The position numbers and the translations under genes were made by a program. From the IMG/VR virus record IMGVR_UViG_3300025372_000014, positions 27,234 through 91,233 of that record: a stretch of DNA of 64,000 bases. One strand, written 5' to 3'. The DNA is from a virus (Duplodnaviria; Caudoviricetes). Under the pieces are notes generated by a model that was not told where the DNA came from, searched no databases, and saw nothing but the letters and a program-made list of their open reading frames with translations. Below, piece by piece: positions 24,789 through 45,991 of this stretch (position 1 is its first letter; the number at the start of each line of letters is the position of its first letter).

Positions 24789-24814
24789 TCTAACCAATAA
24801 CAATTTTTAATAAC

Positions 24815-25951: not shown

Positions 25952-25971
25952 TACTAACGAAAAGTTAATCA

Positions 25972-26007
25972 AGAAACCCCCTCTGGAAACAGAGGGGTTT
26001 TTCTTTT
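25972..26007 (+). terminator. intrinsic terminator after the MCP
   Basis: CCCCTCTG-GAAA-CAGAGGGG stem-loop followed by TTTTTCTTTT. Confidence 0.9.
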
Positions 26008-26058
26008 GTATTTATTAAATAAAATTTTAATTATATACCTTTCACGTTTATAATAAGT

Positions 26059-26433: not shown

Positions 26434-26460
26434 GTTTACCAAATCAGTGTAAATTATTAT

Positions 26461-27003: not shown

Positions 27004-27437
27004 TGAACTATTTCAATAACGCGCAGAAAACAGCTTACAGTAAGCCATTTTATGACATACATGATACTTTCTCGCGCAATATTGTAGTTTTTCAGCACCC
27101 ACAGGCAGTTCTTATATCTAGCCAGCCAGAATACAATTTTTTATACTCGCAGCAAACTGATGACACGGTAGTATATACTCCAGTAAGCGGCGTATTTCCA
27201 GCCACAATAAAGTGGGAACATGCTTATAAAATTAATGATGCTAGAGATATTCGCCCTACTATTTTCGGAAACTATTGCCGTTTAAAGGTAAAGGCAGATG
27301 CGCTTGCATTTATAAGTGGCGCGCGTGGACAAAGAATTGAAGTAGACGGGAGAGCAGTAAATTGGATTGGTAGTAGTGAAGTTCACGGTTTATTTACTGG
27401 AGATTTCTATCATATATATTTAAGGGAGGGAGAGTAA
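27003..27437 (+). CDS. head closure/stopper (putative)
   Basis: synteny; beta-rich, RIEVDG motif. Confidence 0.5.
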   Translation: MNYFNNAQKTAYSKPFYDIHDTFSRNIVVFQHPQAVLISSQPEYNFLYSQQTDDTVVYTPVSGVFPATIKWEHAYKINDARDIRPTIFGNYCRLKVKADALAFISGARGQRIEVDGRAVNWIGSSEVHGLFTGDFYHIYLREGE

Positions 27438-27438
27438 T

Positions 27439-28017
27439 ATGGGTAGTAGTTTGGAACAAATACGCTTGGAAATATTAAATAATCCGGGCCTAGAAAAAGA
27501 AGTCCGTATTGTTGCTGAAGAAATTTTTGAAAAAAGCAAGCAGCAATTAATACAAGAGTTTGAGAATCATCCTGTAACAAAAGAGATTCAAGCCGGGCCT
27601 GATGCATCAAATGAGTCTGGTACTTTGGGTGGTAGAGGAAATTTATTTTCATTTATAGGATTTAATGATGGCACTGATCCAATTACCCCTATAAAAGAGC
27701 TATTACAGGGAATAGAATTTTCATCTTCAAAGGGCAGGAGATTTGGTTCGGGATTTCAGTTTAAAGTAAACATGCCAGATCAAGGTGAACTAGAAAATGC
27801 AAGCAAAATGCCTTGGGAAACAGGACGTAGTTGGTTATATGATATAGAACGCGCTATATCTGGATTGGGGCAATATTTATACGGTCAATTTAAAAATTCA
27901 AGAAGTGGTACTGGAATGCAATTAGAAAAAAATGTTACTACAAATACGTTTATGCCTGTAAAATATTTTGGTACAATGCTAGAAAAATTTAAAAACAAAC
28001 TTAAGGGAATAGAATGA
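27439..28017 (+). CDS. neck/tail completion protein (putative)
   Basis: synteny. Confidence 0.45.
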   Translation: MGSSLEQIRLEILNNPGLEKEVRIVAEEIFEKSKQQLIQEFENHPVTKEIQAGPDASNESGTLGGRGNLFSFIGFNDGTDPITPIKELLQGIEFSSSKGRRFGSGFQFKVNMPDQGELENASKMPWETGRSWLYDIERAISGLGQYLYGQFKNSRSGTGMQLEKNVTTNTFMPVKYFGTMLEKFKNKLKGIE

Positions 28018-28883
28018 ATCCATCATATACAACTAATTTAATGTCAAGTTTTTATTTGTGGCTAGACCATGAGTTAGCGCATGTTGGTCAGGGGTTTGTT
28101 AATACCAGTGGGCAATTATTTCCAGTTAATGACCCTACTTGTGCGGGATATAATGTTTATAGCTCGCCATTCAGACAGTGGATTTCAGATAGTAATATTG
28201 CAAATGCCGTAGTTCCAAGCGGTGTTTATTGTGATGGTAACTTACTCACTAGGGATAGTGGTGTTATATTAAATTTTAATAAAGGACAGGTTTTATTGCC
28301 AAGTAATGTAAAACCAAATTTGGTCACTACTCAGTATTCTAAAAAAGACTTTAATCTTTACTATACAGACGAAAGAGAGGAAACTTTATTATTTGAAAAC
28401 GCACATGCTTTGCAGTCTAAATTTAGAAATATTACCGGTGGTTTAAATGGTGATGACCAGCCATTTCCTTGTATATTTATTAAAAATACTGCTTACCAAA
28501 ATGTGCCTTATGCCTTGGGTGGTCAAGAACAAACCAAAACAACAGTAAGATGTATTATTCTTTCTGATAATATGTACTTATTAGATGGCGCCATATCTGT
28601 AATGACCGATAGCGTGAGAAAGGTTTTTCCTGTAGTTGAGCCTTCTAAATTACCATATAATTACTATGGAGATTTTAAATCAGGAACAAGCTATGAGTAT
28701 GTGCAAATGGCAAATGATGCAAGCTTAAATGCTAGCAACTTAATATATATTGACAGAGTTACTGTTTCTAGATTAGATGAAATTAGGAATAAACATATTA
28801 ACTTAAAAGTTGTCGCCGCGATGGTTGACTTCGACCTATGGCAGGCAAGATATCCAAGAATATACAATCCAACTGGTGTATAA
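28014..28883 (+). CDS. tail terminator (putative)
   Basis: precedes tail tube; PFPCIFI motif. Confidence 0.5.
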   Translation: MNPSYTTNLMSSFYLWLDHELAHVGQGFVNTSGQLFPVNDPTCAGYNVYSSPFRQWISDSNIANAVVPSGVYCDGNLLTRDSGVILNFNKGQVLLPSNVKPNLVTTQYSKKDFNLYYTDEREETLLFENAHALQSKFRNITGGLNGDDQPFPCIFIKNTAYQNVPYALGGQEQTKTTVRCIILSDNMYLLDGAISVMTDSVRKVFPVVEPSKLPYNYYGDFKSGTSYEYVQMANDASLNASNLIYIDRVTVSRLDEIRNKHINLKVVAAMVDFDLWQARYPRIYNPTGV

Positions 28884-28958
28884 TGATAAATAATTTAATC
28901 TTTTCAGAGTGTCTATAATGACCCCTTTAATGTAATTAAATAAAGAACTTCCAAAACT

Positions 28959-30068
28959 ATGTCAAGAAATCGCATCATTTATAACGTTTTATCCCTATAC
29001 GCTGGACAGAATAACGCTGTTAGCGGTAGTCACTCTAACGCTGGAGATATTCGCCAGCTAACACGTGTACAATCTTTTGATGAAGATTTTGCAAGAAATC
29101 TTACAAATGTTGAACAATATGGTAACCTTGCGGCAATAGATCGTATTGAGCTTGAGGCCCCAACAGTTAAGTCCAGTTTTTCTTACTATCTAACAGATGG
29201 TAGTAATGAACACTATCTTGGATTAAATGTTTCGACTGGAAATCAACCATTACTTTCCTGTGTTTCTGGGTATCTAACAAAACAGACCGATCAGAGAAAC
29301 ATGTTCTTAATGATTGCCGACGAGGGTCATGATGCTGTAGACTATTCTTATACAAGAACTGGTGTAATTGGGCTTGGAAATGCCTTCTTAACATCTTATG
29401 ATATAGAGGCGAATGTTGGAAGTATACCAAAGGCAATGGTAAATATGGAAGCTCTAAATGTTGCCGTATACTCTTCTGTAGATGGAACAAATAATATTCC
29501 TGCAGTTAATCCAACTAATGGAATACCAGTAAATGGAATTCCTTTTGTCCTACCACAGTCTACTCTAAGTGATAACAATAGTCAGGTAACTGCATTACAA
29601 CCTGGAGATCTATCCCTATCGGTAAATGGAACACTTGGGGTAAATATTGCAGATCTTAAGATTCAAGGCTTTAAGATGGCACTGCCTTTATCGCGTCAAC
29701 CAATTCGTCGCCTTGGTAACAAGTTTGCATTCACACGCGAAATTCAGTGGCCAGTTAAGGCAACTTTCTCGATTGATGCAGAACTTGGCGATTTGAATGA
29801 TGGCGATCAATATGGTGGCAATCTAGCAAATATCCTTTGTGATACTGGGGTTTATACTATGAATCTTCAGTTCAGAAAGCCAAACTGTCAGGGAACAGGT
29901 GCTGCGGCCCTATTATATCAATTCCGTGGAGCTAAGCTTCTAAACCAGAAAGTAACAACTTCTATTGGTGCAAATGCGAAGTTCACAGCAGAATTTGAGG
30001 CGCAAATCGGTGCCCCAGAAGATACAGTACATGGTATCTTTATCTCTGGAACATATACAAATTACTAA
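28959..30068 (+). CDS. major tail tube protein
   Basis: beta-rich, RVQS, LSRQPIRRLG; own promoter and terminator; upstream of chaperones and TMP. Confidence 0.7.
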   Translation: MSRNRIIYNVLSLYAGQNNAVSGSHSNAGDIRQLTRVQSFDEDFARNLTNVEQYGNLAAIDRIELEAPTVKSSFSYYLTDGSNEHYLGLNVSTGNQPLLSCVSGYLTKQTDQRNMFLMIADEGHDAVDYSYTRTGVIGLGNAFLTSYDIEANVGSIPKAMVNMEALNVAVYSSVDGTNNIPAVNPTNGIPVNGIPFVLPQSTLSDNNSQVTALQPGDLSLSVNGTLGVNIADLKIQGFKMALPLSRQPIRRLGNKFAFTREIQWPVKATFSIDAELGDLNDGDQYGGNLANILCDTGVYTMNLQFRKPNCQGTGAAALLYQFRGAKLLNQKVTTSIGANAKFTAEFEAQIGAPEDTVHGIFISGTYTNY

Positions 30069-30093
30069 GATATAGATCAATAATAAATAAGTA

Positions 30094-30124
30094 GTGGGCA
30101 CCTTCGGGTGCCCATTATTTTTTT
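30094..30124 (+). terminator. intrinsic terminator after the tail tube
   Basis: TGGGCACC-TTCG-GGTGCCCA (cUUCGg loop) plus T-tract. Confidence 0.9.
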
Positions 30125-30174
30125 ATGGGTGTAATATAAGTTGGTATAATAAGGTAAATAAAGGAAAAAGGTTT

Positions 30175-30414
30175 ATGACTGAATTTGATATCAATGGTTT
30201 TGTTACTTCCGCTATTGTGCGTGAAGTTAAGAAGTTGTACTTATCCTTCCTGTATACAACTGAAGATCTTGCTAATAATAACAAGTTATCAGAAGAAGAT
30301 TTCGCGTATCTTAGAAAAAGAATCCTTGACTATGGGAATAATACTGTTAGAAATTTAGAGGAACAGTTAGATAATTTTGATTTTACGTTTAAAAATAAAG
30401 AAAATAATAAATAA
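30175..30414 (+). CDS. 79-aa hypothetical protein
   Basis: start moved to ATG 30175 because the upstream part is terminator/promoter; GTGTAA at 30129. Confidence 0.6.
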   Translation: MTEFDINGFVTSAIVREVKKLYLSFLYTTEDLANNNKLSEEDFAYLRKRILDYGNNTVRNLEEQLDNFDFTFKNKENNK

Positions 30415-30416
30415 TC

Positions 30417-31205
30417 ATGAGTAGCACAAACACAAACAAATGGTATTACGAATTTTCGGTAACTGATAAAACCGGAGCACAAACAAAAAAGTATGCCATA
30501 TTAAAACCTAATAGGAAAATTAGAGAAGATGGTGAACTGTTTTTCGCCAGTGAAACTTCTAGATTTGCTAAGGCCGGGGTATTGCCACGTGCAGCTTGGA
30601 ATACCATTCTTTCAAATGGCGGGGGTACTATTAGCGACTCAGAAAGAGAAAGTTATGGAAAGCTTCTTGCAGATTATAGAACAAATAGTTTTGAGTTACA
30701 GTCTATCCTGATTAAGAGCGATGGCTCTAGGTCTGAAGATGAAAATAAGAGGATCGAGGAGCTTCTAGTTAAGATAGAAGAAATCAAACGTAATATACAA
30801 TCTTTTGAGTCTGAACAAATTAATATTTTTGAAAATACCGCAGAAGCTAAGGCTCGTAACCGTACCATTTTATGGTGGATGCTTCAACTATCATTCGTAG
30901 AGAATAGCGGTAGTTATGTTCCAGTGTTTGATGGAGAGTCATTTTATGACAAGCTAGATAAATATGATGAAATAAATGATTCTGATAATGAGGAACTATC
31001 TTTTACAGTTCAGCGTCTAACATATTTAGTTACGCTGTGGTTCTTGGGTAGAGCAGAAAAAACCGAGGACTTTGTATCTCTTGATCAAGAGTTCTCCTCA
31101 AGTAAAAAAGAAGAGAATGCTGAAGTTAAGCCAGAGGAAGATGCGGTTGTGACACCTGATGCTACGGTTGCGCCTGCTACGCCAGAGACTTCTGCGCAGG
31201 CATAA
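30417..31205 (+). CDS. tail assembly chaperone (putative)
   Basis: between tube and TMP; coiled coil. Confidence 0.5.
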   Translation: MSSTNTNKWYYEFSVTDKTGAQTKKYAILKPNRKIREDGELFFASETSRFAKAGVLPRAAWNTILSNGGGTISDSERESYGKLLADYRTNSFELQSILIKSDGSRSEDENKRIEELLVKIEEIKRNIQSFESEQINIFENTAEAKARNRTILWWMLQLSFVENSGSYVPVFDGESFYDKLDKYDEINDSDNEELSFTVQRLTYLVTLWFLGRAEKTEDFVSLDQEFSSSKKEENAEVKPEEDAVVTPDATVAPATPETSAQA

Positions 31206-31211
31206 TAAAAT

Positions 31212-32243
31212 GTGCAAAATAGTACCGTAAAATACGGAAATGTTTTTACAGAAATAGCTGTCGGGCTTTCACAGAAAGCCATAGAGGGTAGAACTTATTA
31301 TTTTAAGCACCCAACACAGGCCGAGCATTTTGAAATTTATGGTAAGTATTATTTAATATTTGAAGATGCAAAAAAGCGCGGCCTACTCTCGGAAGAGGAA
31401 AAAATAGAAGACGCCCTTAAAAATGGTTGGTGGACTAAACAAAAAGAAGTGAGATTTAATCAGTTAAATGATAATATTAAAAATCTTAAAATAACAAGAA
31501 ATAACTTATTATTACCATCACAAAAGCAACAGATAGATAAAGAGATACAAAGAAATATTTATATTCTTTCAACGTTCGAGAAGGAAAGAAATGAAATAAT
31601 TGGATATACGGCAGAAAAGTACGCCAATGAGAGGCTATACGATGAAATGCTTCTGTCTTTAACTTATAAAAATAGTAATCTAACCGAAAGGCTATTCACT
31701 GATAGTCAAGAATATTACTATTTGTCTGATAGCATAGTAGAGAGCATAAGAGAGGGGTTCTTCTCGTCTATGGCTATCTTGTCGCCAGATAGTATAAAAA
31801 AAGTGGCTGCATGTACATTTTTTCAAAATATGTTGTATGTAACTTCTGAATGTGATGTTATGAGTTTTTGGGGCAAGTCAGCAACTCAGTGTACAAAATA
31901 CCAAATAGATTTACTTATTAATGGTAAGGTTTTTAAAAATGCAATTAAAAATGAAATGCAGCAAGGTGGAAGTATTTCAGATGATGTTCTTTCAGATCCT
32001 GAGAAATTTGTGTTATGGTATGACTCACAGACTAATAATGCTACAACTAATAGTACAACTAGCTCTAATTTTTCCGGATCAAATAATGCAGTATCTAGTT
32101 TTGTAGGCGCAACAAAAGAAGACTTAAAGCAGATGGGTGTCAAAATAGAAAAAATCAAGGGTAAGAGCCTATTACAGCTAGCAGAAGAAAAGGGTGGTGT
32201 TTTACAAAAACATGAATATCTGAATGCGCGAGAAGGTAGCTAA
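31212..32243 (+). CDS. second tail assembly chaperone (putative)
   Basis: directly upstream of TMP. Confidence 0.5.
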   Translation: MQNSTVKYGNVFTEIAVGLSQKAIEGRTYYFKHPTQAEHFEIYGKYYLIFEDAKKRGLLSEEEKIEDALKNGWWTKQKEVRFNQLNDNIKNLKITRNNLLLPSQKQQIDKEIQRNIYILSTFEKERNEIIGYTAEKYANERLYDEMLLSLTYKNSNLTERLFTDSQEYYYLSDSIVESIREGFFSSMAILSPDSIKKVAACTFFQNMLYVTSECDVMSFWGKSATQCTKYQIDLLINGKVFKNAIKNEMQQGGSISDDVLSDPEKFVLWYDSQTNNATTNSTTSSNFSGSNNAVSSFVGATKEDLKQMGVKIEKIKGKSLLQLAEEKGGVLQKHEYLNAREGS

Positions 32244-32288: not shown

Positions 32289-35200
32289 ATGCCACTAGAA
32301 ACAATTGTAAATGTATCAGCGAATACCAGACCAGCCGAGCAGCAAATTAATCAGCTTACTGGTAAAAATTACGCAATTAATCTTAATATTAATTCTCAGC
32401 CTCTGGGCAGAATTACTGGGCAGTTAAGCGAATTTAATAAATCAATTGATGCGGCAAATGCCCGTGTTATAGCTTTCGGTGCTAGTGCTGGCGCTATTTC
32501 CATTCTAGAGAAATCTTTCCATGCACTGATTGATTCTACTATAGAAGTGCAAAAAGCCATGAATGGCATTCAGGTTATTCTTGGTGCATCTGAGGGGGTG
32601 ATGACTAAGTTTGGTAAAAACTTATTTGACATTGCAAAAAATACTGGCCAAAGCTTTGATGTTGTTGCTGAGGCGGCTACGAATCTTTCTCGTCAGGGCT
32701 TGGGCGTAGAAGAAACATTAAAAAGAACCAATGATGCGCTTGTGCTTTCTCGTATTACTGGTATGGGTGCTGCAGAAAGTGTTCGCGCACTGACTGCGGC
32801 AGTAAACTCTTTTACAAGTCAGGCTGTAACTGCCACAGAGGTTGTTAATAAATTTGCAACTGTAGATTCCTCATTTGCTATTGGTGCAAAAGATTTGCCA
32901 GAAGCTATTAGTCGTGTTGGTAGTGCCGCCGCTCAAGCGGGTGTTAGCTTGGATGAGCTTATTGCGCTGGTTACATCTGCACAGGTGGCAACAGCCCGTG
33001 GCGGTAGTGTAATTGGTAACTCGTTTAAGACAATCTTTACAAGACTTGAGCGTGGAAAAACACAAGACTTATTAGAGAGTATTGGTGTTAGCACAAAAGA
33101 TTCCGAAGGAAAATTAAAGTCTACAATTGACATGCTAAAAGATTTGGCTACTGTTTACGGAAGCCTAAGTCAAGGTCAGCAGGCGAATGTGGCCGAAAAG
33201 GTTGGTGGAGTTTTCCAGATTAACATTTTAAAAGCTGCTTTGGCAGATTTAGGTAAAGAAAATTCTGTATATAACGCTGCTCTAAAAACATCCATATCTT
33301 CAACGGATGAAGCAACAAAACGTAATGAAAAATTAAATGAAACATATGCCGCTCAAATCAATAGACTAAAACAAAGCGCTACAGAGTTAGCTGCAAACGC
33401 TGGTAAGCAGGTTTTTGGGCCAAGCATGGATAGAATTATTGGCGGTGGGAATAATATATTAGATTCTTTAAATAATATAGATTCGAATAGCATCGGCGCT
33501 AAATTAGGTAAGGGAATTCTTGACGGTATTGGTCAGGTTTTAGCCGGTCCCGGATTGGTATTAATTGGTGGGGTTGTTATAAAGTTACTGGGCGATTTAG
33601 CTAAATTCTCGTCTGGTAGTGTTAAGGAACTATTAGGTTTAAATGCTGCAACAAAACAGCGTGAAGATATACAGAAAAGTGTTCTTGAGATTTTACAAAA
33701 AGAGCCAGATGTTTTAGCAAAAATTAACGCTGCAGGAAAAGACACGACCTCATCTGCAAAAATATTATTAAGCTTCCTAGAGAAACAGACAGCGCAGATG
33801 GAAATGCAGGCAAAGTGGGCCGGTGAGGTTGCTGGAAAGTTATATGGTGGTGGTGTGAGAATGGGTGGTGGTGTACCAGTAACAAAAAAATCTGCAGGTT
33901 ATATTCCAGACTTTGCAAGTGAAGAGATACAAGCAAAAATGCTTGGCGCAAAAAATCCACGCGCAATGTGGAGCGATGGGACAATTGGTGGTAAAAAATT
34001 TATTAAGAATAGTGAGGAGACTGAGATAGTTGGGTATGGGCGTAATGGAGATTCTGCTGTTATACCAATGTATGCCAGTGGATATGTACCTAATTTTGCT
34101 GGAGAGGGCTCAAGAGTTCAGGCTCTATCTGAATGGAATAGATTTAATCTAATTGATGATAATGGTAAAATAATACTTGCGAATAAACCCTCAAAAGATT
34201 TAAGAAACTGGTCCCGCAACAACTCTGGAATATTGTCAGAAGAGGATATATTAAAAATAAAACAGCCAGAACCGCTGACAAAAAGAGAAAAACCAATAAC
34301 CTCCGTAGAGGATATAAGTGTATCTGGAAGGGGCTCTAATAAAATAGTAAATCTGGGTAATCTTGATTTATCGACTTTAGATCCTAGTATCGCTAATAAA
34401 TATGGAGTATTTTTTCCGAACTTGGGTGGCGAGGTTCTGCCAATTTCTCAGTCGGTAAATGATATTAGCGCGTTAAAAAGTAAAAATGTAAATGGAAACA
34501 TTTCTGCTAAATTAAAAACTGCATCTGTTTTTCCTTTAAATTCAAAAGAAAGCGATTTTGATAAAATTCTAGAAGACCTATTTTTACCGCCTTTTAGGAA
34601 TTTATCAGATAGAATTGCATCTACATTTTTATCTAAAGATAGTAGTATTGCAGGCGAATTGGGAGTGGATAGTGTACTCACCCCTTCTGTGAAGGGTAGT
34701 ATATTTGAAAAAGCTTTGGGGGCGGCTTCTGTTATTTCTAAGAAAAAATTTGAAAAAGATAGTCAAGAAGATCAACGTTCTTTTGATTATGCACCGCTTG
34801 GTGATTATCCGTCTCTTATGGATAAGATAAAGTTATCTTCTGATGGCGCAGCTGAAGCAAAAAAATCTAAAGATGCGGCTCATAACTTACCATCAAAAAT
34901 TTTAACACATGACTCTGGTTTATTAGTTCAATTACAAAACAAAATTAAAGAAAAACTAGAGCCAAAAATTAAAACTGCGGCAACTGGTTATATACCTAAT
35001 TTTGCAGATGCGCTACATGCATCTATTGCGCGCGAAATTGGTGCTGGCGCGCCAGCTGGTGATATTTATGTTAAAAAATATGGACAATTAACAAGTGCAA
35101 ATAATCCCGATGGGTATGGTGTTTTTAATAAGAGGGATGAGGGCACGATGTCGAGCGAGATGCGAGCTATGCGCAAAAAGGGATATGCTCGTGGTTATAT

Positions 35201-38200
35201 TCCAAATTTTGCTGATGATGGTGGAGGATTTGGCGCTGCTGGTGGTGCTAGCGCCGGGCTTGATTTATTAATGGCGTTACAGTTAATCAAATCTTCTAAT
35301 AAAGAAAAATCTGAAGAAGAAAAAAAGGCCGCAGAAGCTACCAAAGAGGCATCTACTGGAATAAAGCAATTAACTAGTAATATTAAAGCACTTTCACAGA
35401 TAGATAAAGAAATTGCATCTGTTTCTAATTTAAAAAAAGCCGCTACTTCTGCTATAAGTAAAATAAGATCAAATGAACTTCCATTAGATTTAATGGGCGA
35501 AGCCGTTAGTACTGTCAAGCAAAGTGGAGCCGAAGAAGCAAGGTTAAAAAAACAAAAAAAAGATATTCTTGCCGAAGGGAGAGCTTCGGGGGCTTTTAAC
35601 GCGAAAATTCTAGGTGTAGATGTTGGTAATGTAGAAAGTATGTCAACCTTTACTGGTTCTTTGAAACAACAGGCTGGATCTTTACTGGGTAAAGCTGGCA
35701 AAATGGCTTCAAACCCAATGCTTGGAATAGCTGCGCCATTAATTGCTGGACAAATTTCAGAATTAATACCCAAAGAAAATACCGGTGCAAAACAGGCGGT
35801 ATCTAGTCTAGGAAATGTGGCATCAATGGCTAGTACTGGTGCAATGTTAGGTGGGCCAATTGGTGCAGTAGCTGGCGCGGCGGTTGGCGCAATAGGTGAA
35901 ATACCTAATATAGCACGAGCTTTTAATTCTAGTTTACCAAAACTTACCGAAGAGGCAGATAAGGCAAAAGATGGGTTTACAGAATTTCATTCTACTTCTC
36001 AAAGTTATCTACAGTCACTACAAACACTAGAAGATGCTGTAAATAATGGTACTGCTAGTGAGACAGAGTTGAGAAAAATGAAACAACAAGTTTCTCAGGC
36101 ATATGCAAAATTTTCTCCAGATGATTTAAAAGTTATAAAAGAAGCTCGACAAACTGGTGGAGCAAAGGGTGAGCGAGAGGCTATTCAAGACTTGGATCAG
36201 CGTAAAAAAGAAGACGCGGAAAAGAAAGCTAGTGATTTAGCGTTAACAAAAAATGCGGAAGATTTAAGGTATTCATTCTCTGGAATGATGATACCAGGAT
36301 GGGCTGGCGGAGGTGTTGGTGCTCAGGACACTTCAAAAGTATCTGATATGGCTGTTTCTGTATTGACACAGGGACTTACTGGTAAAGAGAAACTTGATAA
36401 GTTATCAGGTGTTAATATTGGCGGCTTACTAGAAGCTGGTAATAAGAAAGATGCGAGCGCAGTTCAGGGTCAGTTGATGGCAGCTGGTTATAGTGAGCAA
36501 GAGGCAAAGGCCGAGGTTGCCAATCTTAAAGCAAGTAAAGATTTTAGCGCTGCTACTGCAGAACTTGCAGAAAAACTCGTAAAAGCAAGAGTCGCAACAT
36601 TAGCACAGAAGAAAGCCGAAGATGAGATAATAGAAGTAAGACAGAGAGATAGGGACATGACCATGCAAAATGTCGGAATCATACAAGAAGAGATTGCGGC
36701 TTTAAAAGTAAACATACAGGCTCAATATGAAACAGAAAGAGCTAAAATTAAAACAGAAGAAAGAAAACAAAAATCTGCTACAGAAATGGCGGGTGTTCGT
36801 TCGCAAGGATCAATTAATGTTGCAGCTGCTATAGCTGGAGAAGAGAGTCCAGATGTTATAGCAATGAAAAGGGCAAAAGAATATTCAGATATTGAGTTAA
36901 ATCTTAACAATGGAATTGCTGATTTAAAGCGTAATAGCAAACTATCCGAGTTTAATTCTGGAGAAAAAATTCAAATCAGTCGTCTGGATGAAACTGGCAA
37001 TAAAGCAAAAGCTGCAAAAAATGCCCGCCCATATGAAACGAATGTGGGTGAAGCATCCCAGACTGGCTTAGAGGGATATTTCCAAAAAATAGATCTAACG
37101 AAAGGTGGACAACAATCACAAATTGAAGCACTATCTCAGAATATACTAACTAACAATAATAACTATATTAAGGGAATTTCAAAATATAATGGAAAAAGTG
37201 CGATGTTTGAGCAGGACAGTCTTTTATATGGCGAAATGGGCAAGCCAGAACAAATCACGCAAAAGGGCCAACAAGATGCTAAAAGTGTCGCATTACAGAG
37301 AGGAATCCAAGAGCTGAATGAAACAGCAAAAGATCAAAAAAAGATACTTGATGAAAGGTTGCATTTTGAAGAATTGGCTGCAAATATTAAATCATTACAG
37401 TCCTCGTTTGGTGGCGGTAATGCGTTTGTTAATGGCAAAGATGTTACTGGTGATCTTATATCGCAATTCTTACAGGGTAGCGCGCTAAAGAAACCAATTG
37501 ATACGACTCAGTCACTAATTAGAAATGGGCTGGAGCTAAAGAGTGCGGGAATAGATGTTAACAAACCACTTTCTGAACAAAAAACTAATGCCGGATCATT
37601 ATCACAGGCCGCCGAACTTGGCAGAAACTATTATAAAACAAATCGTAGTTTAAAAGATATTTTTGGTGGTGAAATTTCAGGCGGACCGGGAGACAAATTT
37701 CAGAAAACAATGGAAGTTGGTAGGCAAGCAGATTTAATGAGACAGTATAAGGATCTTGAAACTGCAGCTAAAACTGGAACACCAGAACAGAAGGAAGCTT
37801 TTTCAAGATATTCTCAAAGCTTTATGTCAAAAACAGGTAAGTCAAATATGACGGATGCTTTTGGTTATAAGGCTCAATTAGAAGCTTCTATGGAAACTGG
37901 TCATCTTACGGATCAACAAAAAGTAATGGCTGATAAATTTGGCTATAATAAGGGTGGCAACGCGGTAACTGATTTACTAGGATATAACTATAAGGAAGTT
38001 GCACCAATTTTTGACAAAAAGGGCAAACGAGATACCGTTGCTGAACAGAAAAAAAGCGATGAAATAAATCAGGGTATAAATAATGTTTTAGGAAAAGACT
38101 TTAAACTAAATTCAGTTGGAAAGGATGAGAGTGTAGTAGCGCTTAATGCCGGTTTGAGAATACAGACTGCCATATTACAGGAAGTCCAAAAAATAGGTGA

Positions 38201-38471
38201 CACATTTAACGGTAAAAATACCTCAAGTGGCAGTGGTGGGGCTGGCGGTATGAGCGTGAATGTAAACGTTAATGGTGCTGCTGGTGGTGGTCAGGGAGGC
38301 ATTAGAGACGAGTTACAGCAGGCTATTCAGACCGCTATAGATGGTGTAATGCAGGCTTTTGGTGATAGATTCCAAAAAACAGAATATAAAGCAAATACTG
38401 GAAATAATCCTCCTCCATCAACAAGCAATCAAGGTGATATAGCTAATGTATATGCCAATCAGAGAAGGTAA
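32289..38471 (+). CDS. tape measure protein with inserted cargo cassette
   Basis: TP901-like TMP core (LFDIAKNTGQSF, LSRQG, VIGNSFKTIFTRL); Gly-rich TM-like segments; four GY(I/V)P(N/D)FA motifs. Confidence 0.9.
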   Translation: MPLETIVNVSANTRPAEQQINQLTGKNYAINLNINSQPLGRITGQLSEFNKSIDAANARVIAFGASAGAISILEKSFHALIDSTIEVQKAMNGIQVILGASEGVMTKFGKNLFDIAKNTGQSFDVVAEAATNLSRQGLGVEETLKRTNDALVLSRITGMGAAESVRALTAAVNSFTSQAVTATEVVNKFATVDSSFAIGAKDLPEAISRVGSAAAQAGVSLDELIALVTSAQVATARGGSVIGNSFKTIFTRLERGKTQDLLESIGVSTKDSEGKLKSTIDMLKDLATVYGSLSQGQQANVAEKVGGVFQINILKAALADLGKENSVYNAALKTSISSTDEATKRNEKLNETYAAQINRLKQSATELAANAGKQVFGPSMDRIIGGGNNILDSLNNIDSNSIGAKLGKGILDGIGQVLAGPGLVLIGGVVIKLLGDLAKFSSGSVKELLGLNAATKQREDIQKSVLEILQKEPDVLAKINAAGKDTTSSAKILLSFLEKQTAQMEMQAKWAGEVAGKLYGGGVRMGGGVPVTKKSAGYIPDFASEEIQAKMLGAKNPRAMWSDGTIGGKKFIKNSEETEIVGYGRNGDSAVIPMYASGYVPNFAGEGSRVQALSEWNRFNLIDDNGKIILANKPSKDLRNWSRNNSGILSEEDILKIKQPEPLTKREKPITSVEDISVSGRGSNKIVNLGNLDLSTLDPSIANKYGVFFPNLGGEVLPISQSVNDISALKSKNVNGNISAKLKTASVFPLNSKESDFDKILEDLFLPPFRNLSDRIASTFLSKDSSIAGELGVDSVLTPSVKGSIFEKALGAASVISKKKFEKDSQEDQRSFDYAPLGDYPSLMDKIKLSSDGAAEAKKSKDAAHNLPSKILTHDSGLLVQLQNKIKEKLEPKIKTAATGYIPNFADALHASIAREIGAGAPAGDIYVKKYGQLTSANNPDGYGVFNKRDEGTMSSEMRAMRKKGYARGYIPNFADDGGGFGAAGGASAGLDLLMALQLIKSSNKEKSEEEKKAAEATKEASTGIKQLTSNIKALSQIDKEIASVSNLKKAATSAISKIRSNELPLDLMGEAVSTVKQSGAEEARLKKQKKDILAEGRASGAFNAKILGVDVGNVESMSTFTGSLKQQAGSLLGKAGKMASNPMLGIAAPLIAGQISELIPKENTGAKQAVSSLGNVASMASTGAMLGGPIGAVAGAAVGAIGEIPNIARAFNSSLPKLTEEADKAKDGFTEFHSTSQSYLQSLQTLEDAVNNGTASETELRKMKQQVSQAYAKFSPDDLKVIKEARQTGGAKGEREAIQDLDQRKKEDAEKKASDLALTKNAEDLRYSFSGMMIPGWAGGGVGAQDTSKVSDMAVSVLTQGLTGKEKLDKLSGVNIGGLLEAGNKKDASAVQGQLMAAGYSEQEAKAEVANLKASKDFSAATAELAEKLVKARVATLAQKKAEDEIIEVRQRDRDMTMQNVGIIQEEIAALKVNIQAQYETERAKIKTEERKQKSATEMAGVRSQGSINVAAAIAGEESPDVIAMKRAKEYSDIELNLNNGIADLKRNSKLSEFNSGEKIQISRLDETGNKAKAAKNARPYETNVGEASQTGLEGYFQKIDLTKGGQQSQIEALSQNILTNNNNYIKGISKYNGKSAMFEQDSLLYGEMGKPEQITQKGQQDAKSVALQRGIQELNETAKDQKKILDERLHFEELAANIKSLQSSFGGGNAFVNGKDVTGDLISQFLQGSALKKPIDTTQSLIRNGLELKSAGIDVNKPLSEQKTNAGSLSQAAELGRNYYKTNRSLKDIFGGEISGGPGDKFQKTMEVGRQADLMRQYKDLETAAKTGTPEQKEAFSRYSQSFMSKTGKSNMTDAFGYKAQLEASMETGHLTDQQKVMADKFGYNKGGNAVTDLLGYNYKEVAPIFDKKGKRDTVAEQKKSDEINQGINNVLGKDFKLNSVGKDESVVALNAGLRIQTAILQEVQKIGDTFNGKNTSSGSGGAGGMSVNVNVNGAAGGGQGGIRDELQQAIQTAIDGVMQAFGDRFQKTEYKANTGNNPPPSTSNQGDIANVYANQRR

Positions 38472-38476: not shown

Positions 38477-40018
38477 ATGAACTTTGCTAATGCTACTATA
38501 TTATCTGTCAGCAGAAAATCTGAGTTTTTATCTAATACTGTTAGATACCGTTCTACTTTACAATTAAATGTAGAAGGGTTATTACTGGAATTGACAAATT
38601 CTAGTGGGGTGGCCTATATTATATCTGACCTTTTAGATTTGCAGTCGCAATCTGACAACTGGCAAGATATTAATATTAATGGATATAATTTTGGGCAGGG
38701 TATTATTTCTTCCATTAGTTTTTCAGAGGGGAATGATGTTAGAACAAAAAAATATAATGTCAATATTACTGTCCCACAAGATGGAGATCTTTCTAGTGTA
38801 GTTGGAGAGGACTATACAGGTTTAGCTTATCAAAATATTAAATATATAGAAGGTTTTTCTGAGTCTAGTGCATATGATAAGCAGGTAAAAAAAGAAACAT
38901 ATTCTCAGTCAATTAAGTTTTCAATTCGTGGCCCCTACTCTCTAAATGCCGTCGGTGCCGCACAGTCATTGGCCGCTGATTTTTTTGCGCATAATGACTT
39001 AATAAATACTGTTGGAAATAAATATTCTGATAGTATCATATATAGAAAGTTTTATAATGAGAGCTATGATAGTATTAATAATAGGTATGAGTTTTCTAGA
39101 AATTATGAAACTAGTACGGATTCAAATGGTCAATATTCAGTTTTTAGATCTCACGGGCTAACTTTTGATCAGGCTGGAATTGCGAATGTAAAGGAAAAGG
39201 CTGAATATATTGGGCATACTAGTGTACCATTTGATACTGTATCCCAGCAGGCAAATTCGGATATACAGGGTGCATTAGGTAGGTGCCAAGCGGTATTTTC
39301 TGCTTATTTAGATGAAACAAATGCCTCGCTATTAAGTACGCCTATTACAAAGTCTTTTGCTTCCTTACCTTTTGATGGTAAGATAAATTATGAAGTAACC
39401 TTTACTAATTCTAACCGTGTCAAAGATACATATTTTTGGAACTATGAGATTAGTATGGAAAAAACTTTGGGTGGAAATTATATAGCTACTGAGCATGGAG
39501 AAGTAGTTGGTTTTGGCCACATAATTGAAGCTAAATACAACAATGCCCTTGGCGCATGGAATACTAGCATTCAATCTGGAATACAGTCTCGTGTTAGCAG
39601 TTATTATACTGGCGGTTCTAGTTTAAAACTCACAACAGAAAGTACCACCCTACAGAAAGTGCAGGGAAAAATTGCCTATTCTAATAAATATACTGATAGT
39701 GACTCTATAAGAGACTCTACTGATATAAGAAAGGTTGTCGCAACGATTAGTAAACAGGCCAGCAGGCATTTGGTGAGTTATTTTAATATTATTAATGTTA
39801 AAGAGATTGCGCAGATTCAACCTAATACATTACCTGTAGAAACATCTTTTTCTGTAGATATGAATGGTAGCGCGCGCGCTGTTTTGGATGATTATTTAAG
39901 TATTGCAAAGGGGTACGTTCAGGCCCCCTCACCGGGGTTTATTGCAGATGCCAACTATTCGTTTGATCCATCGGCAAGATCATTCAAATTATCCGTTTCT
40001 ACTCTTTCATTCGAGTAA
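38477..40018 (+). CDS. tail tip/distal tail protein (putative)
   Basis: follows TMP; repeated beta-strand modules. Confidence 0.5.
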   Translation: MNFANATILSVSRKSEFLSNTVRYRSTLQLNVEGLLLELTNSSGVAYIISDLLDLQSQSDNWQDININGYNFGQGIISSISFSEGNDVRTKKYNVNITVPQDGDLSSVVGEDYTGLAYQNIKYIEGFSESSAYDKQVKKETYSQSIKFSIRGPYSLNAVGAAQSLAADFFAHNDLINTVGNKYSDSIIYRKFYNESYDSINNRYEFSRNYETSTDSNGQYSVFRSHGLTFDQAGIANVKEKAEYIGHTSVPFDTVSQQANSDIQGALGRCQAVFSAYLDETNASLLSTPITKSFASLPFDGKINYEVTFTNSNRVKDTYFWNYEISMEKTLGGNYIATEHGEVVGFGHIIEAKYNNALGAWNTSIQSGIQSRVSSYYTGGSSLKLTTESTTLQKVQGKIAYSNKYTDSDSIRDSTDIRKVVATISKQASRHLVSYFNIINVKEIAQIQPNTLPVETSFSVDMNGSARAVLDDYLSIAKGYVQAPSPGFIADANYSFDPSARSFKLSVSTLSFE

Positions 40019-40052
40019 TATATCTAAAAAAGTGTAAATAAATTAGGTATTT

Positions 40053-41633
40053 ATGGTCAAGGTATATTATAACGGAAGCAATCCATTTTTGGGCATTTCT
40101 CCAACACCCTTTGTTGCGATAAATGACGATATGGTCAATTATGGCCAAAGATGGGGTGCAGTACAAAAAATCACTCTAAAAGGCATGCTAACTGGTGCCT
40201 GTAATCCGAGCCTTGGAAATAATCAGTTATTGGAAAATCAACAGTCTTTATTTAATAGCTTTTCCACTGATTTTAAAAAATTAGAAATTATAGATTCTAA
40301 TTCTACTGTATTTAGTGCGGACTATGCAAAAATTGATAGTATAGATTTTGATGCATCTTCTTACGTAGCTGGTGTGCCATTTAAAGTAAATATTACGGCA
40401 TTTCCATCTAATATGTTTAATGGCGTTTATGGCGTATTGGATCCTGTGTCGGTAATTAGGTACTCTCAGCAGAACAATGGTATTGTTAATATAAGCAGAA
40501 ATATATCTGCTAAGGGTTTTAATACATCAAATACATCAAATAATGCCCTAGATAACGCTAGAAATTATGTTCAATCTTTAACTGGTACGGCGATAATACC
40601 TCCACATTTTATATCTTTAACTCCAAATTTATGCCCAAGAAAGGTTGTTGAGAATATTAATAGAATGGAAGGCACATATGGCGTTGATATAGATTATACA
40701 CAAAGAATTAATTCTTCATCTTCCGTATTGCTATCATATAGTGTCGATATTTCTTACGAAGAAGAGCGCGGAATTTATAATGTAGCATTAAAAGGTAATT
40801 TGAATGGAGGAGATTGTAGGCAGATGTCTGAGCTAAGAAATAGTTATACAAGTTTTCAACCTTATAATATAGCTAGTACTAACCTATATAAACAGGCGAC
40901 AAATGTGGTATTAAATCCAGAGCCAGATAATTTTTCAATTGAAGAGGACGAGGCAAGTAATACTATAAATTTTAGCTATGCCTATACAACTGATCCGCAG
41001 CAGGTTAAATTTGATTATTCAGTAGATGTCCAAAATGAATATCTATCCGATAAAGCAACTGTTACATTAAATGGTAGTTTTGTTGCCAGAGGGCCACAGA
41101 CAACTAGAATGGGCAAAGCAGAATCTGCGCTTGCCAGTTTTAAGCCACTACCCATATGTGAAGCAGCATATCAAAACAATATCTCTGCACGATCAGTCCC
41201 TCTTAATCCAAATTTTAAGAGTTACAATATAACTAGAGACCTAACATCTAATATAATTAAGGTGCAGGCAAGTTTTGATAATTCAATTACTCTTGCTGGT
41301 GCAAAGGTATTTAATTATAATATATCTATAACACCCAGCCTAAATGCGTTTGGGCCGGTACAGTTTTTAGACGGCTCAAATGGTTTTTTTGATTTAAAGT
41401 ATTTTAAAAGGGGGAAAATGAGTATACAGGGATCCGCATTATATAGTGAATCTTCAGACCAGACCGATATGGTAAGATCAACTGCGAATGGATTGCTGAT
41501 AAAATACTTAGGGCAAAATTCAGTACTAACTGAAAGCAAGGTAGAAAGAAAATTACAGTCCGAAGATAATGGATATGTATATAGTTTTAATATAGCATAT
41601 ACATGTGAAACACCAGTATTCTCCATACAATGA
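40053..41633 (+). CDS. tail tip protein, likely paralogue of 38477..40018
   Basis: similar size and motifs (I.SISF / IDSIDF, F.V.IT); GTGTAA at 40032. Confidence 0.5.
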   Translation: MVKVYYNGSNPFLGISPTPFVAINDDMVNYGQRWGAVQKITLKGMLTGACNPSLGNNQLLENQQSLFNSFSTDFKKLEIIDSNSTVFSADYAKIDSIDFDASSYVAGVPFKVNITAFPSNMFNGVYGVLDPVSVIRYSQQNNGIVNISRNISAKGFNTSNTSNNALDNARNYVQSLTGTAIIPPHFISLTPNLCPRKVVENINRMEGTYGVDIDYTQRINSSSSVLLSYSVDISYEEERGIYNVALKGNLNGGDCRQMSELRNSYTSFQPYNIASTNLYKQATNVVLNPEPDNFSIEEDEASNTINFSYAYTTDPQQVKFDYSVDVQNEYLSDKATVTLNGSFVARGPQTTRMGKAESALASFKPLPICEAAYQNNISARSVPLNPNFKSYNITRDLTSNIIKVQASFDNSITLAGAKVFNYNISITPSLNAFGPVQFLDGSNGFFDLKYFKRGKMSIQGSALYSESSDQTDMVRSTANGLLIKYLGQNSVLTESKVERKLQSEDNGYVYSFNIAYTCETPVFSIQ

Positions 41634-43423
41634 AAAATGCCATACAATACTATTTAAACCTTTTTAATAGCGTTGCGAATAAAAATGCTGCGGTATATTT
41701 TGACTTTACTACCAGTGGTAGTGGTATTGTAAATAATATCACCGGAACCAGTGGTTATTTAAATGGTAATATAATTAATTATGCTGATAATTTTTGGAAT
41801 ACAAGTGGTTCTGGATTTTTAAATAATAGTTATATAACAATTAGTACAACTGGTGATATAGATCTGAATTATGGAACATATTCCATGATTTATCAGAAAA
41901 CTTCTCCCGGTGGTGCAACGTTAATATCTACAATCGATACTGGTTATGATAGTGTTTCGGGTTTTTATAATAAGGGCTATGAGTTCGGCGTTACAGCAAA
42001 TAATAAATTATATTTTGAATATTATTCTCAGGATGGCCCAACTGTACTAATATCTGATTATATAGTCTCAGATAAATCTTCCGTATTTTTAAACCTTGAT
42101 AATGATGCGGTATCTTTTGGATATTATGATTTTTTTAGATCTAAATTAAACTCTAATATTTTCTCTATTAATAATTCTTACTTATTTAACACAACAGGAA
42201 TAAATATTGGTTATAATCCAAGGGCTTCTGGCGGTTATTCTTATAATAAACAGTTTACTGGATTTATTGATCAGTTTTTTCTCTTTAGTCCCCCAATTTA
42301 TACTTTTGATATTATAAATTTAAATAGTGGCTATGCAAATAGTTATAACTCTGGTACCTCATATGTAACATATTTACCAGTAACTGGGGTCACTGGATAT
42401 TCTACTGGTATAACTGGATTTTATACTACTGTAACAGGATATACAACTGTAGCTACTGGTGTAATTTATGATGATTTTGGCAATCAGTTTAGCGGTTTTG
42501 CAACGTCACCATTAACTGGTACATATTATGGTACCGGAATAATACCATTAACAGGCGTTTCTATTGTACCGTTTACTGGAATAAATACAGGGGATTATCT
42601 TGTTTATAATTCAGGATATATAGCAGAATTTGGAAAAAGAAATATTTCTATATTAAAAAAATTAGATAGCTCTGATTTTATAGAGGTAAGTGTTCCAGAT
42701 CATAATTATAATCCAATTTATCAAAATAATTTAGTCACCAAGTACGATTATGTACAAAACTCCTTTTTTAATAGCTATATAAAACAGAATCCCAGTATGA
42801 ATTTTATTGTTTTTGTTAATGGCGTAGCCCAGAACTCTGGAACATACATTTCATCTGGAAGCGTATATTCTTCAGTCAATATACAAAAAAATGACTACAT
42901 TGTTACAAACAATAATGAAATATCATTTAATATATTATTTGACCCTTCTGATAATATATCAGTAGATATGGTTTCAGGAATTTATAATACTGGATTTTAT
43001 ATAGAAAATTTCTATTATAATCCTTTATTGTCTTCCATATCATTGCCTTGGCCAACAAATTATAATGTATTTTTCAATGGACAGAAACTCACTAGCGGCC
43101 AAGATTCGCAAATAGGTGTTAATGCGCAGTATGGTGTTAATTCTACTGGTATTTACTTTAAATATATAAATATATTTTCTGGAGTTAGTGGACAGCTTTT
43201 CGCGCTGCCTAAAAATTTTAATATTACATCTACTGGCCTAGGTACCCATTTAGTTACATTTGACCAAACATTTTATGATAATTATTCTGAGGTGTATATG
43301 AATGGTGTAAGATTATCGCCAAATAATGATTATTTGGAACTACCTATAATAGATTCAAATGCCGGTACTGGTATTTTTGATATTAAAACTGGAATATTAT
43401 ATAATAATAATCAATCTTTTTAA
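41630..43423 (+). CDS. LamG/concanavalin-A-like domain tail protein with a TG-rich stalk
   Basis: VYFDF...; FTGFIDQFFLFSPPI; VF.NG repeats. Confidence 0.65.
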   Translation: MKNAIQYYLNLFNSVANKNAAVYFDFTTSGSGIVNNITGTSGYLNGNIINYADNFWNTSGSGFLNNSYITISTTGDIDLNYGTYSMIYQKTSPGGATLISTIDTGYDSVSGFYNKGYEFGVTANNKLYFEYYSQDGPTVLISDYIVSDKSSVFLNLDNDAVSFGYYDFFRSKLNSNIFSINNSYLFNTTGINIGYNPRASGGYSYNKQFTGFIDQFFLFSPPIYTFDIINLNSGYANSYNSGTSYVTYLPVTGVTGYSTGITGFYTTVTGYTTVATGVIYDDFGNQFSGFATSPLTGTYYGTGIIPLTGVSIVPFTGINTGDYLVYNSGYIAEFGKRNISILKKLDSSDFIEVSVPDHNYNPIYQNNLVTKYDYVQNSFFNSYIKQNPSMNFIVFVNGVAQNSGTYISSGSVYSSVNIQKNDYIVTNNNEISFNILFDPSDNISVDMVSGIYNTGFYIENFYYNPLLSSISLPWPTNYNVFFNGQKLTSGQDSQIGVNAQYGVNSTGIYFKYINIFSGVSGQLFALPKNFNITSTGLGTHLVTFDQTFYDNYSEVYMNGVRLSPNNDYLELPIIDSNAGTGIFDIKTGILYNNNQSF

Positions 43424-43425
43424 AA

Positions 43426-45987
43426 ATGAGTCAGAATAAGATATTAGATGTTGGCAAAATAGAAGGAAATTTTTATGGTGGACTACCATATGATGCCAGC
43501 TGGAATTTTAATGATGGCAACTCACCATCTACGTTAAAGATAAGCGTGGTAAATGCTGAAGGAAAATATCCAGATTTAGATCGGGAGCTTTCTTACACGA
43601 AGACAGTTACTGTTAAGCTAGGGCAATTTTCATTTCAAGGGTATTTAGTTTCATATGAAATTGATAAAACACCGCAACAGAAATTATTGCATTTAAATTA
43701 TGTTGACATGAGTGTTGCACTAGATCAGTATTATGTTGGTCTATATAAAAGACATGGAGGAACTGGCGCTCCCGCAAAAAATTTAATAATAGTAGGTAAA
43801 GAATACCATCCTTGTGATAAAAATAAAGATTCAACTGTTAGTACGCTAGAAACTAAAGCAATAATAGATCCATGTGATCCATGTCCATATATGCCAAATG
43901 ATAAATATAAGAGTTCTTGTGATCCAGTTAGAAGTGATTTTCAAATATGGGAAGTATTTTATACATTTAATGATCTTTTAGCCCAACTACCAGTTTCATC
44001 TGATCATAGTAATGCCAAAGATACCAATTATAAAGCACAGCATACAGGGAGTTTGAAAAGTGTTCTTGGAGCATGGTGTTCAGATTTAGGTTTAGCATAT
44101 TATTGGGATCCATTTAAAAGCAAATTATTTTTTGTTGATAGAAGTAAACCTTTAGAAGTACCAAGTGATTTGGATTCAATTCCGAATATTATAGAATATA
44201 AATCAGGTGCAAGTAAACAAAATACATTTGCAAGAGGCTTTATTGGTTATTTTGGGAAACAAGGGGAAATTAAACAGTATACATGCACTCTTGATCCAAC
44301 TAATAGTTTTCAAACGCTTCAGCCACTTACAGTAGCTGATCTATATAATCAGAATAACTACCCAAGAGAAGGCGAGATTGCTGCAAAAGAAATATGCTCG
44401 GTTTTTTCTAGATATGGTAAGCCATTAAGAGATGCTTATCTTTGGTATGGTTTTTACAAGCTTAATACTGCAAAAGATACCGAAAAGGTTACATATGCTA
44501 ATCGTCCTGGGGGTAGCAGTGGCGGTAGCCCTGACAATATTTTAAACCAGTTTGGAGGAATGAAAATTTTGGGAGTGTATAGCCAAACAGCCCAAAAACC
44601 CGAAAATCAGGCGGCACATGCATCGCTAGCTCAATTTATAAAAAATGATAATAATGATCCTACAGAGAAAACAAATCCAACTTATTATTTTTTAGCAGAT
44701 GTTAATGATGAAGTAGTATCTACCCAGTTTCAATCAGAACAGAATATAGCGCAAAATTTTCTTGGTAGATATTGGTATAAACCATACAATACACTTATTC
44801 CGGGCGCAGATAATGCACATACACAATATACAGCAGAGGCACCAGATGGTGCTCAAGTGCAATGGTATATTGCCAGAAAAGATGTTTCAGCGGTACCTAT
44901 TTTTGGTTTTGGGCATGAAGATGGCTCGCCTATTGGTAAGCTATACGAAAATATACAAAAAGATGCGCAGGCAAATGAAAATCCTTACAAAAATAGCGCG
45001 GCAGGCTCTGGTCAAGGAAAAGCGGCTGTTAGCGCTTTTTTATTAATGGATAGGGCATCTAAATTTTCGCCTAATGAAAGTGAAACAAAATATTATCAAT
45101 CACTTTTCGACTGGTATGAAAAGTATGTACCGAGTCCAGTGGTAGGGCTTGATAATTCTGTTTTATCTTCACTTCCTGGTTATGATGCTAATTTTAAAAA
45201 TTTAAAACTATTTAAAGTTAGGGAGTACAGTGACTTTAAGACGGATCTTCAATCCGCATCTAACCCTTTGGAGCCTGCCTCCATGACAATGAAAACGCAA
45301 ACTACTCAAAATTCACTTGGAAATCCAGTGGTTACAAATATAGGTCAATACGGTTTAGTATCAAACCAGTCGGCACAAATTAGGGTCGGTAGTAGCCAAA
45401 AGGTAGATATGGTTATATATACGCCCCCACAGTCGATACAAGCGTTATTCGGCGGATCTAGTAGTTCCTCTGCGGCTGGCTATAAAGTATATGTACAACC
45501 CTCTGCTACATTCCCTAAAATAATACCAAAGGTTCAGTATACTTACTCTGTTAATGCGGGCAGTGCAGATGTCGCAAAATTGGATTATAACTACAAGGAG
45601 ATACAAGAAGATAATATTAATCTTATTAATGGTCAGAAATGTGTTATTGCAGATTCAAGCATTAAAGATTATGTGAAAGGAATTAGCCAAAAATCTGCAT
45701 ATTTTCAAGACAAACCATTAAAAACTATTACTATAAAATTACCAGGTATTGTTCCTAAGATATATAGCGTTGATCAGGCACTTAATTCTATACAAATAAA
45801 TATCACTGAAAATGGGAGTTTTACCACTTATTCATTTGAAGATAAAGTAATACAGCCACCAAGTGATGATTATATAACACAACAATATCTTTTAGATAGG
45901 TCTAAGCCGCAAAAATCTGTTGGGGGCAATAGCATTACGGCTGGAGAGATAACTAATATAAAAGCAGGAATGAGTAGCACTAATTAA
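43426..45987 (+). CDS. baseplate hub/central tail protein (putative)
   Basis: PSTLKISVV, FQGYLVSY, WCSDLGLAYYWD hub-like pattern. Confidence 0.55.
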   Translation: MSQNKILDVGKIEGNFYGGLPYDASWNFNDGNSPSTLKISVVNAEGKYPDLDRELSYTKTVTVKLGQFSFQGYLVSYEIDKTPQQKLLHLNYVDMSVALDQYYVGLYKRHGGTGAPAKNLIIVGKEYHPCDKNKDSTVSTLETKAIIDPCDPCPYMPNDKYKSSCDPVRSDFQIWEVFYTFNDLLAQLPVSSDHSNAKDTNYKAQHTGSLKSVLGAWCSDLGLAYYWDPFKSKLFFVDRSKPLEVPSDLDSIPNIIEYKSGASKQNTFARGFIGYFGKQGEIKQYTCTLDPTNSFQTLQPLTVADLYNQNNYPREGEIAAKEICSVFSRYGKPLRDAYLWYGFYKLNTAKDTEKVTYANRPGGSSGGSPDNILNQFGGMKILGVYSQTAQKPENQAAHASLAQFIKNDNNDPTEKTNPTYYFLADVNDEVVSTQFQSEQNIAQNFLGRYWYKPYNTLIPGADNAHTQYTAEAPDGAQVQWYIARKDVSAVPIFGFGHEDGSPIGKLYENIQKDAQANENPYKNSAAGSGQGKAAVSAFLLMDRASKFSPNESETKYYQSLFDWYEKYVPSPVVGLDNSVLSSLPGYDANFKNLKLFKVREYSDFKTDLQSASNPLEPASMTMKTQTTQNSLGNPVVTNIGQYGLVSNQSAQIRVGSSQKVDMVIYTPPQSIQALFGGSSSSSAAGYKVYVQPSATFPKIIPKVQYTYSVNAGSADVAKLDYNYKEIQEDNINLINGQKCVIADSSIKDYVKGISQKSAYFQDKPLKTITIKLPGIVPKIYSVDQALNSIQINITENGSFTTYSFEDKVIQPPSDDYITQQYLLDRSKPQKSVGGNSITAGEITNIKAGMSSTN

Positions 45988-45991
45988 TATT

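Follow-up and report, generated by a model that had tools for sequence, protein, structure and literature searches.

A recurrent nonapeptide, a candidate junction signal, at module boundaries in a tape measure protein from an uncultured siphophage-like virus of aquatic origin

The 64,000-nucleotide stretch of DNA analysed here (positions 27,234 to 91,233 of IMG/VR record IMGVR_UViG_3300025372_000014, referred to throughout as the window) comes from an uncultured aquatic siphophage-like virus and encodes a tape measure protein (TMP), P0001, with a cassette of three modules in its interior. Structural models predict that these modules, mini-domain A, insert N and mini-domain B, fold independently of one another and are bounded by a flexible nonapeptide of consensus A-x-G-[YF]-[IV]-P-N-F-A. 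Across the family of related TMPs the cassette starts with A and ends with B, and the sequences of the relatives indicate that modules are added or replaced exactly at the motif. The likeliest role of the motif is that of a candidate processing (cleavage) site at which modules would be freed, an assignment to which we give somewhat less than an even chance. A more encompassing reading would make the peptide a dedicated junction signal of a polyprotein-like TMP delivery system, in which modules are cut free during or after ejection and N is a metal-dependent nuclease of new fold or a junction-processing enzyme, the whole amounting to a widespread, undescribed injection route of aquatic siphophages; taken in its entirety, this reading is tentative and rather unlikely. 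The gene and the parts of the cassette are as follows.

32289 to 38471, plus strand: TMP gene, 2060 amino acids (P0001), from the open reading frame (ORF) list, the translation, and the PF10145 and PHROG matches
32634 to 33209, plus strand: TP901-type TMP core domain, residues 116-307, from PF10145
33891 to 33917, plus strand: junction motif 1, SAGYIPDFA, residues 535-543, opening the cassette, with Asp for Asn
33918 to 34073, plus strand: mini-domain A, residues 544-595 (52 residues)
34074 to 34100, plus strand: junction motif 2, ASGYVPNFA, residues 596-604
34101 to 34979, plus strand: insert N, residues 605-897 (293 residues), from AlphaFold2 (AF2) models and the alignment of insert family c4
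34605 to 34979, plus strand: conserved core of N, residues 773-897, with G803, F806, E807, D833, E856 and K858, from alignment A5
34980 to 35006, plus strand: junction motif 3, ATGYIPNFA, residues 898-906
35007 to 35186, plus strand: mini-domain B, residues 907-966 (60 residues), closing the cassette
35187 to 35213, plus strand: junction motif 4, ARGYIPNFA, residues 967-975

P0001 is identified as a TP901-type tail tape measure protein by the match of residues 116-307 to the Pfam family PF10145 (PhageMin_Tail; expectation value (E) 1.8e-30, 106.8 bits against a cut-off of 33.2), and by matches to 11 PHROG TMP families, ten of them over the N-terminal ~460 residues and one, phrog_167, reaching residue 881. 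The preliminary description of the window, which had been made from the sequence alone, was right in calling the protein a TMP, and the four motifs and the stretch of residue order E...D...ExK that it had placed in the gene were all found in the translation, the latter (KGSIFE...SFDY...AEAK, nucleotides 34692-34862) corresponding to E807, D833, E856 and K858. The segments between the motifs, put there at about 50, 290 and 60 residues, measure 52, 293 and 60 residues, and the consensus of the four copies in P0001 is A-x-G-Y-[IV]-P-[ND]-F-A.

A search of 5.8 billion proteins with residues 500-1010 of P0001 returned 208 homologues, and the analysed set consists of the 120 that were listed, P0001 included. 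These proteins are 1.3 to 3.2 thousand residues long and each contains 1 to 10 copies of [AS]xG[YFHW][IV]PNF, while the strict form G[YF][IV]PNF occurs 504 times in the 120 homologues against 0.011 expected from composition, a frequency far beyond chance. The logo of the motif reads A(83%)-x-G(100)-Y/F(94)-I/V(98)-P(100)-N(93)-F(100)-A(83), with basic residues upstream and acidic residues downstream. In the window, the four DNA copies use differing synonymous codons, which argues that selection acts on the peptide and rules out a role at the DNA level, for instance as a recombination site. The motif is confined to the TMP ORF in the 86 IMG/VR loci (up to ~22 kb), the 64-kb window and the 91-kb record; a function as a general virion targeting signal is likewise ruled out, since the other ORFs are without it. 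In the literature, one or other of the strings YIPNF, YVPNF, FIPNF and FVPNF was found in four papers, all unrelated to phages, and IPNFA in none of the papers listed, and no description of motif-fenced TMP cassettes of this kind was found.

An AF2 model of residues 525-985, built from 35 sequences (ma89c3a5b5320), has a mean predicted local distance difference test score (pLDDT) of 75.8, with values of 88-96 in the N core, and all four copies of the motif score below 50, as disordered linkers between folded modules. When the TMPs were cut at their motifs and the pieces clustered, the largest families were those of mini-domain B (106 members), mini-domain A (103) and a common insert family, c2 (88), with the window's own insert in a family of 11 (c4) and many small families besides. 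The motifs coincide with module boundaries whatever the module family, and the same exposed, flexible consensus thus recurs at every module boundary, in the manner of a polyprotein.

In the AF2 model of residues 525-985, mini-domain A consists of one helix and four strands (pLDDT 84-90), and B of a helix, two strands and two helices (pLDDT ~80). The invariant residues are E, G, A, G, N and E in A (alignment A6) and R, E, G, N, P, G, N and E in B (alignment A7), and A frequently contains an internal IPNF-like strand within its fold. No relative of either was found in Pfam or the PDB. The bare modules align by hhalign with a probability of 0.6%, and inclusion of the flanking motifs brings only the motif and first helix into register (22 columns). 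Homology of A and B was rejected on these results, and the earlier claim that the mini-domains are related is not confirmed. The further suggestion that they cut the motifs themselves is also without support, because they are only ~55 residues in size and have no conserved Ser, Cys or His; the cassette as a whole lacks Cys altogether and conserves neither His nor Ser.

Insert N was earlier regarded as exchangeable cargo in a modular cassette, and only part of that idea has stood. Families c4 and c2 are homologous over their C-terminal ~110 columns (hhalign probability 97.3%, E 2.4e-11), and the window's insert therefore belongs to the dominant module family N and is not exchangeable cargo. An alignment of 36 diverse cores (A5) has invariant G, F, D and K, an E in at least 90% of sequences, and D or E two positions before the K; the E/D/[DE]xK positions are among the few invariant or near-invariant columns of the insert family. 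A profile made from A5 matched 632 clusters (50% identity) at E <= 1e-3 among 1.84 billion representative proteins, nearly all in TMP-sized proteins at about residues 700-1100. The N core is the near-universal and commonest inner module of the family; the short matches P0127, P0208 and P0217 look like gene fragments. A protein-atlas search with the N domain gave no usable match.

What was borne out is the modularity itself, for relatives do add or replace modules at the motif, and the comparison of homologous TMPs for variable cargo that had been proposed at the outset turned up GNAT, PcfJ-like and HExxH modules between motifs. A scan of IMG/VR with the single sequence found no relative, whereas a profile scan succeeded: the relatives number at least 308, their contigs span 6-200 kb, and their architectures run from A-N-B up to arrays of eight or more modules. 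Pfam scans covered 56 representative extra modules and 15 giant TMPs. A GNAT acetyltransferase module lies at positions 8483-9007 of locus L060 (IMGVR_UViG_3300027728_000006; 29.8 bits against a cut-off of 20.7), and GNAT was also matched in 3 of the 15 giant TMPs. A PcfJ-like domain (PF14284), of a family otherwise known from conjugative plasmids, lies within a 636-residue motif-fenced module at positions 12860-14767 of locus L051 (IMGVR_UViG_3300020204_004643; 30.8 bits against 25). In a giant relative of 4611 residues (P0148), residues 2701-2751 match the helix-hairpin-helix DNA-binding motif PF12836 (E 5.2e-6) with 26.9 bits, just below the cut-off of 27.

A further module family, of ~190 residues and with a conserved zincin-like signature TLxHExxH, lies between motifs in a minority of relatives (L060, P0080, P0121, P0176, P0177 and P0254); it has no Pfam match and is identified by the motif alone. 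One of its protein-atlas neighbours carries LPD23, a polyvalent-protein domain, in 18% of that neighbour's members, which serves as a lead only. In L060 the GNAT module is followed directly by the HExxH module (L060:9035-9616), each fenced by motifs, in a TMP that also carries N and other modules. By analogy, GNAT with HExxH is the combination that would be expected of a polyvalent protein with its own processing peptidase. P0005, which is 46% identical to the window TMP, has a second cassette composed of A, an HExxH module and B, indicating that the general unit is A, one or more inner modules, and B. The occurrence of GNAT, PcfJ-like and HExxH modules at the motif makes the family look like polyvalent injected proteins set within a TMP.

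In the usual view a TMP serves as a ruler and forms a channel. Wall hydrolases, domains thought to act during infection, are found in a few, and one is known with an RNA polymerase. The polyvalent proteins described from phages and conjugative elements (Iyer, Burroughs, Anand, de Souza and Aravind 2017, PMC5512222) combine several unrelated effector-type domains, GNAT included, on a single giant chain believed to accompany the DNA into the host, and an embedded zincin peptidase has been proposed to process them into units (PMC5512222), a feature that recalls the HExxH modules of some TMP relatives. Here, however, the carrier is a TMP, a class of protein that goes unmentioned in that account, and neither the invariant nonapeptide fence nor the frame of an opening A and a closing B is described there (PMC5512222). 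Several effector-type domains in one chain are found in the relatives L060 and L051, whereas the window TMP has only A, N and B, that is, a single inner module and no peptidase motif, unlike the multi-domain polyvalent proteins.

Two other known arrangements place functional domains on a TMP. Gp96 of Thermus phage P23-45 is a TMP fused to the virion RNA polymerase (PMC10770324), and is similar in that an enzyme acting in the cytoplasm, experimentally active and virion-borne, is carried on a TMP and proposed to pass the tail channel (PMC10770324). It differs in being a single N-terminal fusion, with no PNFA motif reported and no sequence relation to the window TMP, and in that its enzyme is identified whereas module N is not. 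TMPs with embedded cell-wall hydrolase motifs, such as that of mycobacteriophage TM4 (PMC1796659), likewise have a functional non-structural domain inside the TMP. Their inserts can be recognised as peptidoglycan hydrolase motifs, whereas none of the modules here resembles a wall hydrolase, and neither the junction motif nor the A/B frame has a known counterpart there.

In the preferred reading, the modules would be carried through the tail lumen within the TMP and would emerge before the DNA does, so that the TMP would also convey proteins made in advance (a 'polyvalent' TMP). The nonapeptide would be a shared signal, recognised in trans at every junction and most likely processed to free the modules, as at the junctions of viral polyproteins. 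The surroundings of the cassette, which begins ~100 residues past the first hydrophobic segment of P0001, bear on this proposal.

33510 to 33614, plus strand: hydrophobic Gly-rich segment upstream of the cassette, residues 408-442 (Kyte-Doolittle window maximum 2.06)
35229 to 35915, plus strand: region downstream of the cassette with further hydrophobic Gly-rich segments, residues 981-1000 and 1143-1209, from a hydropathy scan

A location between hydrophobic segments (residues 408-442 and 981-1209) would favour release of a soluble enzyme. Self-cleavage dependent on Asn, either at N-F of the motif or at the invariant N-P of mini-domain B, was considered and found unsupported, because the motifs are disordered, the opening copy takes D, E or A, and the NPxG of B reads as an ordinary beta-turn.

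Several observations weigh against the preferred reading. P0001 contains no HExxH anywhere and no candidate protease is visible in it. None of the 86 loci has a natural gene boundary at a motif, the apparent split of the TMP in L004 being a masked run of N letters. The Asn, present in 723 of 743 later copies, is found in the first, cassette-opening copy of 116 of 144 homologues, where the position also accepts D, E, A, S or Q; the opening Asp of the window fits this relaxed position. Moreover, the motif is dispensable in some lineages. Five TMPs of ~1.4-1.5 thousand residues (P0151, P0201, P0234, P0241 and P0257) contain the N domain, yet a search with the pattern used detects no PNF motif in them, and of these P0151 keeps mini-domain A and N with the motif decayed to forms such as GHVPKLA, while P0234 likewise keeps A and N with a degenerate motif containing IPRFN. 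The retention of A and N in both suggests that N can function without intact motifs. Finally, no cultured relative was found among the INPHARED phages by tblastn of residues 471-1037 or by megablast of 20 kb.

The main alternative to processing, possible if somewhat doubtful, is that the motif is an assembly or docking signal. Each copy would attach, perhaps by adding a strand, to the tail assembly chaperone, to the lumen of the tube or to an adjacent TMP chain, and bulky modules would thereby be kept ordered or unfolded in the tail and remain joined to the TMP after ejection. The restriction of the motif to the TMP is in keeping with such a role, as is its disorder in a model of the monomer, which is what would be expected of a peptide bound in trans. 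The IPNF-like strand so often present in A indicates that the sequence can act as a beta-strand, and the lack of a visible protease in the window TMP also favours docking. Gp96 of P23-45 offers a parallel, being described as a TMP-enzyme fusion in a paper whose text never mentions proteolysis and mentions cleavage once (PMC10770324). However, the distance between copies of the motif ranges from 19 to ~1000 residues with no periodicity, which is difficult to reconcile with a regular tube lattice, and the motifs fall precisely at module boundaries whichever families adjoin them. Cytoplasm-type enzymes such as GNAT, lying between hydrophobic segments, would also gain from release.

That the insert is a nuclease effector of the PD-(D/E)xK type, freed by motif-cutting mini-domains and injected into the host, as the preliminary description had it, is improbable. 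The residue order on which this idea was founded has held up: PD-(D/E)xK nucleases share with N a conserved order E...D...[DE]xK, which in N persists across a deep family, and the N core is of suitable size (~100-125 residues). As modelled by AF2, N begins with ~60-70 flexible residues, after which come a sheet of four strands, a long helix and then the conserved core. In a second AF2 model (residues 664-896, 44 sequences, m9dd36c57d191; pLDDT 85.4, predicted template modelling score 0.79) the sheet and the long helix are followed by the helix of E807, a beta-bridge by D833, a helix, the strand of E856 and K858, and two helices. The placement of E on a helix and of ExK on a strand is favourable to a nuclease, as is the near-threshold helix-hairpin-helix match in the one giant relative. 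The canonical core, on the other hand, is alpha-beta-beta-beta-alpha-beta, with the D opening strand 2 and (D/E)xK borne by strand 3, within a hairpin, whereas in the N model a helix separates the D from the ExK strand in place of the beta-hairpin.

Foldseek and VIA-align comparisons of the two AF2 models gave no nuclease match, parts outside the long helix being barely covered; Pfam at E up to 10 returned 0 families; and phmmer against the PDB, with the A5 profile against the PDB, gave no nuclease. The PDB profile did match hemopexin-type lectins (E 0.004), and these are dismissed as spurious, the aligned 'GtvFE' repeat being a beta-strand in those proteins. In the absence of a profile or structural match, the nuclease reading comes down to the residue pattern. 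Against the other elements of the effector proposal, the mini-domains are ~55 residues long, devoid of a conserved nucleophile and not demonstrably related, and the insert is conserved and not exchangeable. The modelled fold of N matches no known one and a nuclease fold is unconfirmed; the set E807, D833 and E856-x-K858 would be consistent with a nuclease or another metal-dependent hydrolase. Least probable of all is a conserved flexible linker without a biochemical role of its own, spread with the modules by duplication or recombination together with one flanking copy, for although the motif is exactly where modules have been acquired, dropped or rearranged and some lineages let their motifs decay yet keep A and N, the nine positions are 77-100% conserved where modules share only 10-25% identity, and the variation at synonymous sites points to strong purifying selection on the peptide, beyond what a passive linker would lead one to expect.

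The family is large and purely metagenomic, and has a regular, extensible layout of opening, inner and closing modules joined by one invariant peptide, with inner modules that in some phages include recognisable host-modifying enzymes. Should the peptide prove to be a processing or a docking signal, it would represent a general mechanism by which long-tailed phages place proteins in the tail and deliver them, and such cargo could be recognised in metagenomes simply from the sequence of the peptide. The conserved N would in turn be a new domain family with a catalytic-like set of residues.

The IMG/VR contig that contains the window is 91,233 bases long and ~60% complete. A scan of genome collections gave matches only on contigs of aquatic metagenome-assembled genomes, in bins labelled Flavobacteriales and others; the hosts of the family are probably aquatic Bacteroidota, a guess taken from these bin labels alone. 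The TMP ORF sits within a run of large ORFs on the same strand, and 16 large plus-strand ORFs around it (window positions 22331-32243 and 38477-50912) had no family match at the thresholds used, ten upstream ORFs being compared with PHROGs (three of them also with Pfam) and six downstream ORFs with Pfam only. The structural module of the phage is, by these comparisons, very divergent. The ORFs at 30417-31205 and 31212-32243, immediately preceding the TMP gene, are candidates for tail assembly chaperones.

Near the C-terminus of P0001, residues 1977-2005 (window positions 38217-38303) form an uncharged tract rich in Gly, Ser and Asn (SSGSGGAGG...NVNVNGAAGGGQGG). Downstream of the TMP gene, a 372-residue ORF on the plus strand (window positions 50956-52074) matches RCC1-like repeats (PF13540, E 7.9e-14) and, weakly, an MBG domain, and probably encodes a tail fibre or receptor-binding component.

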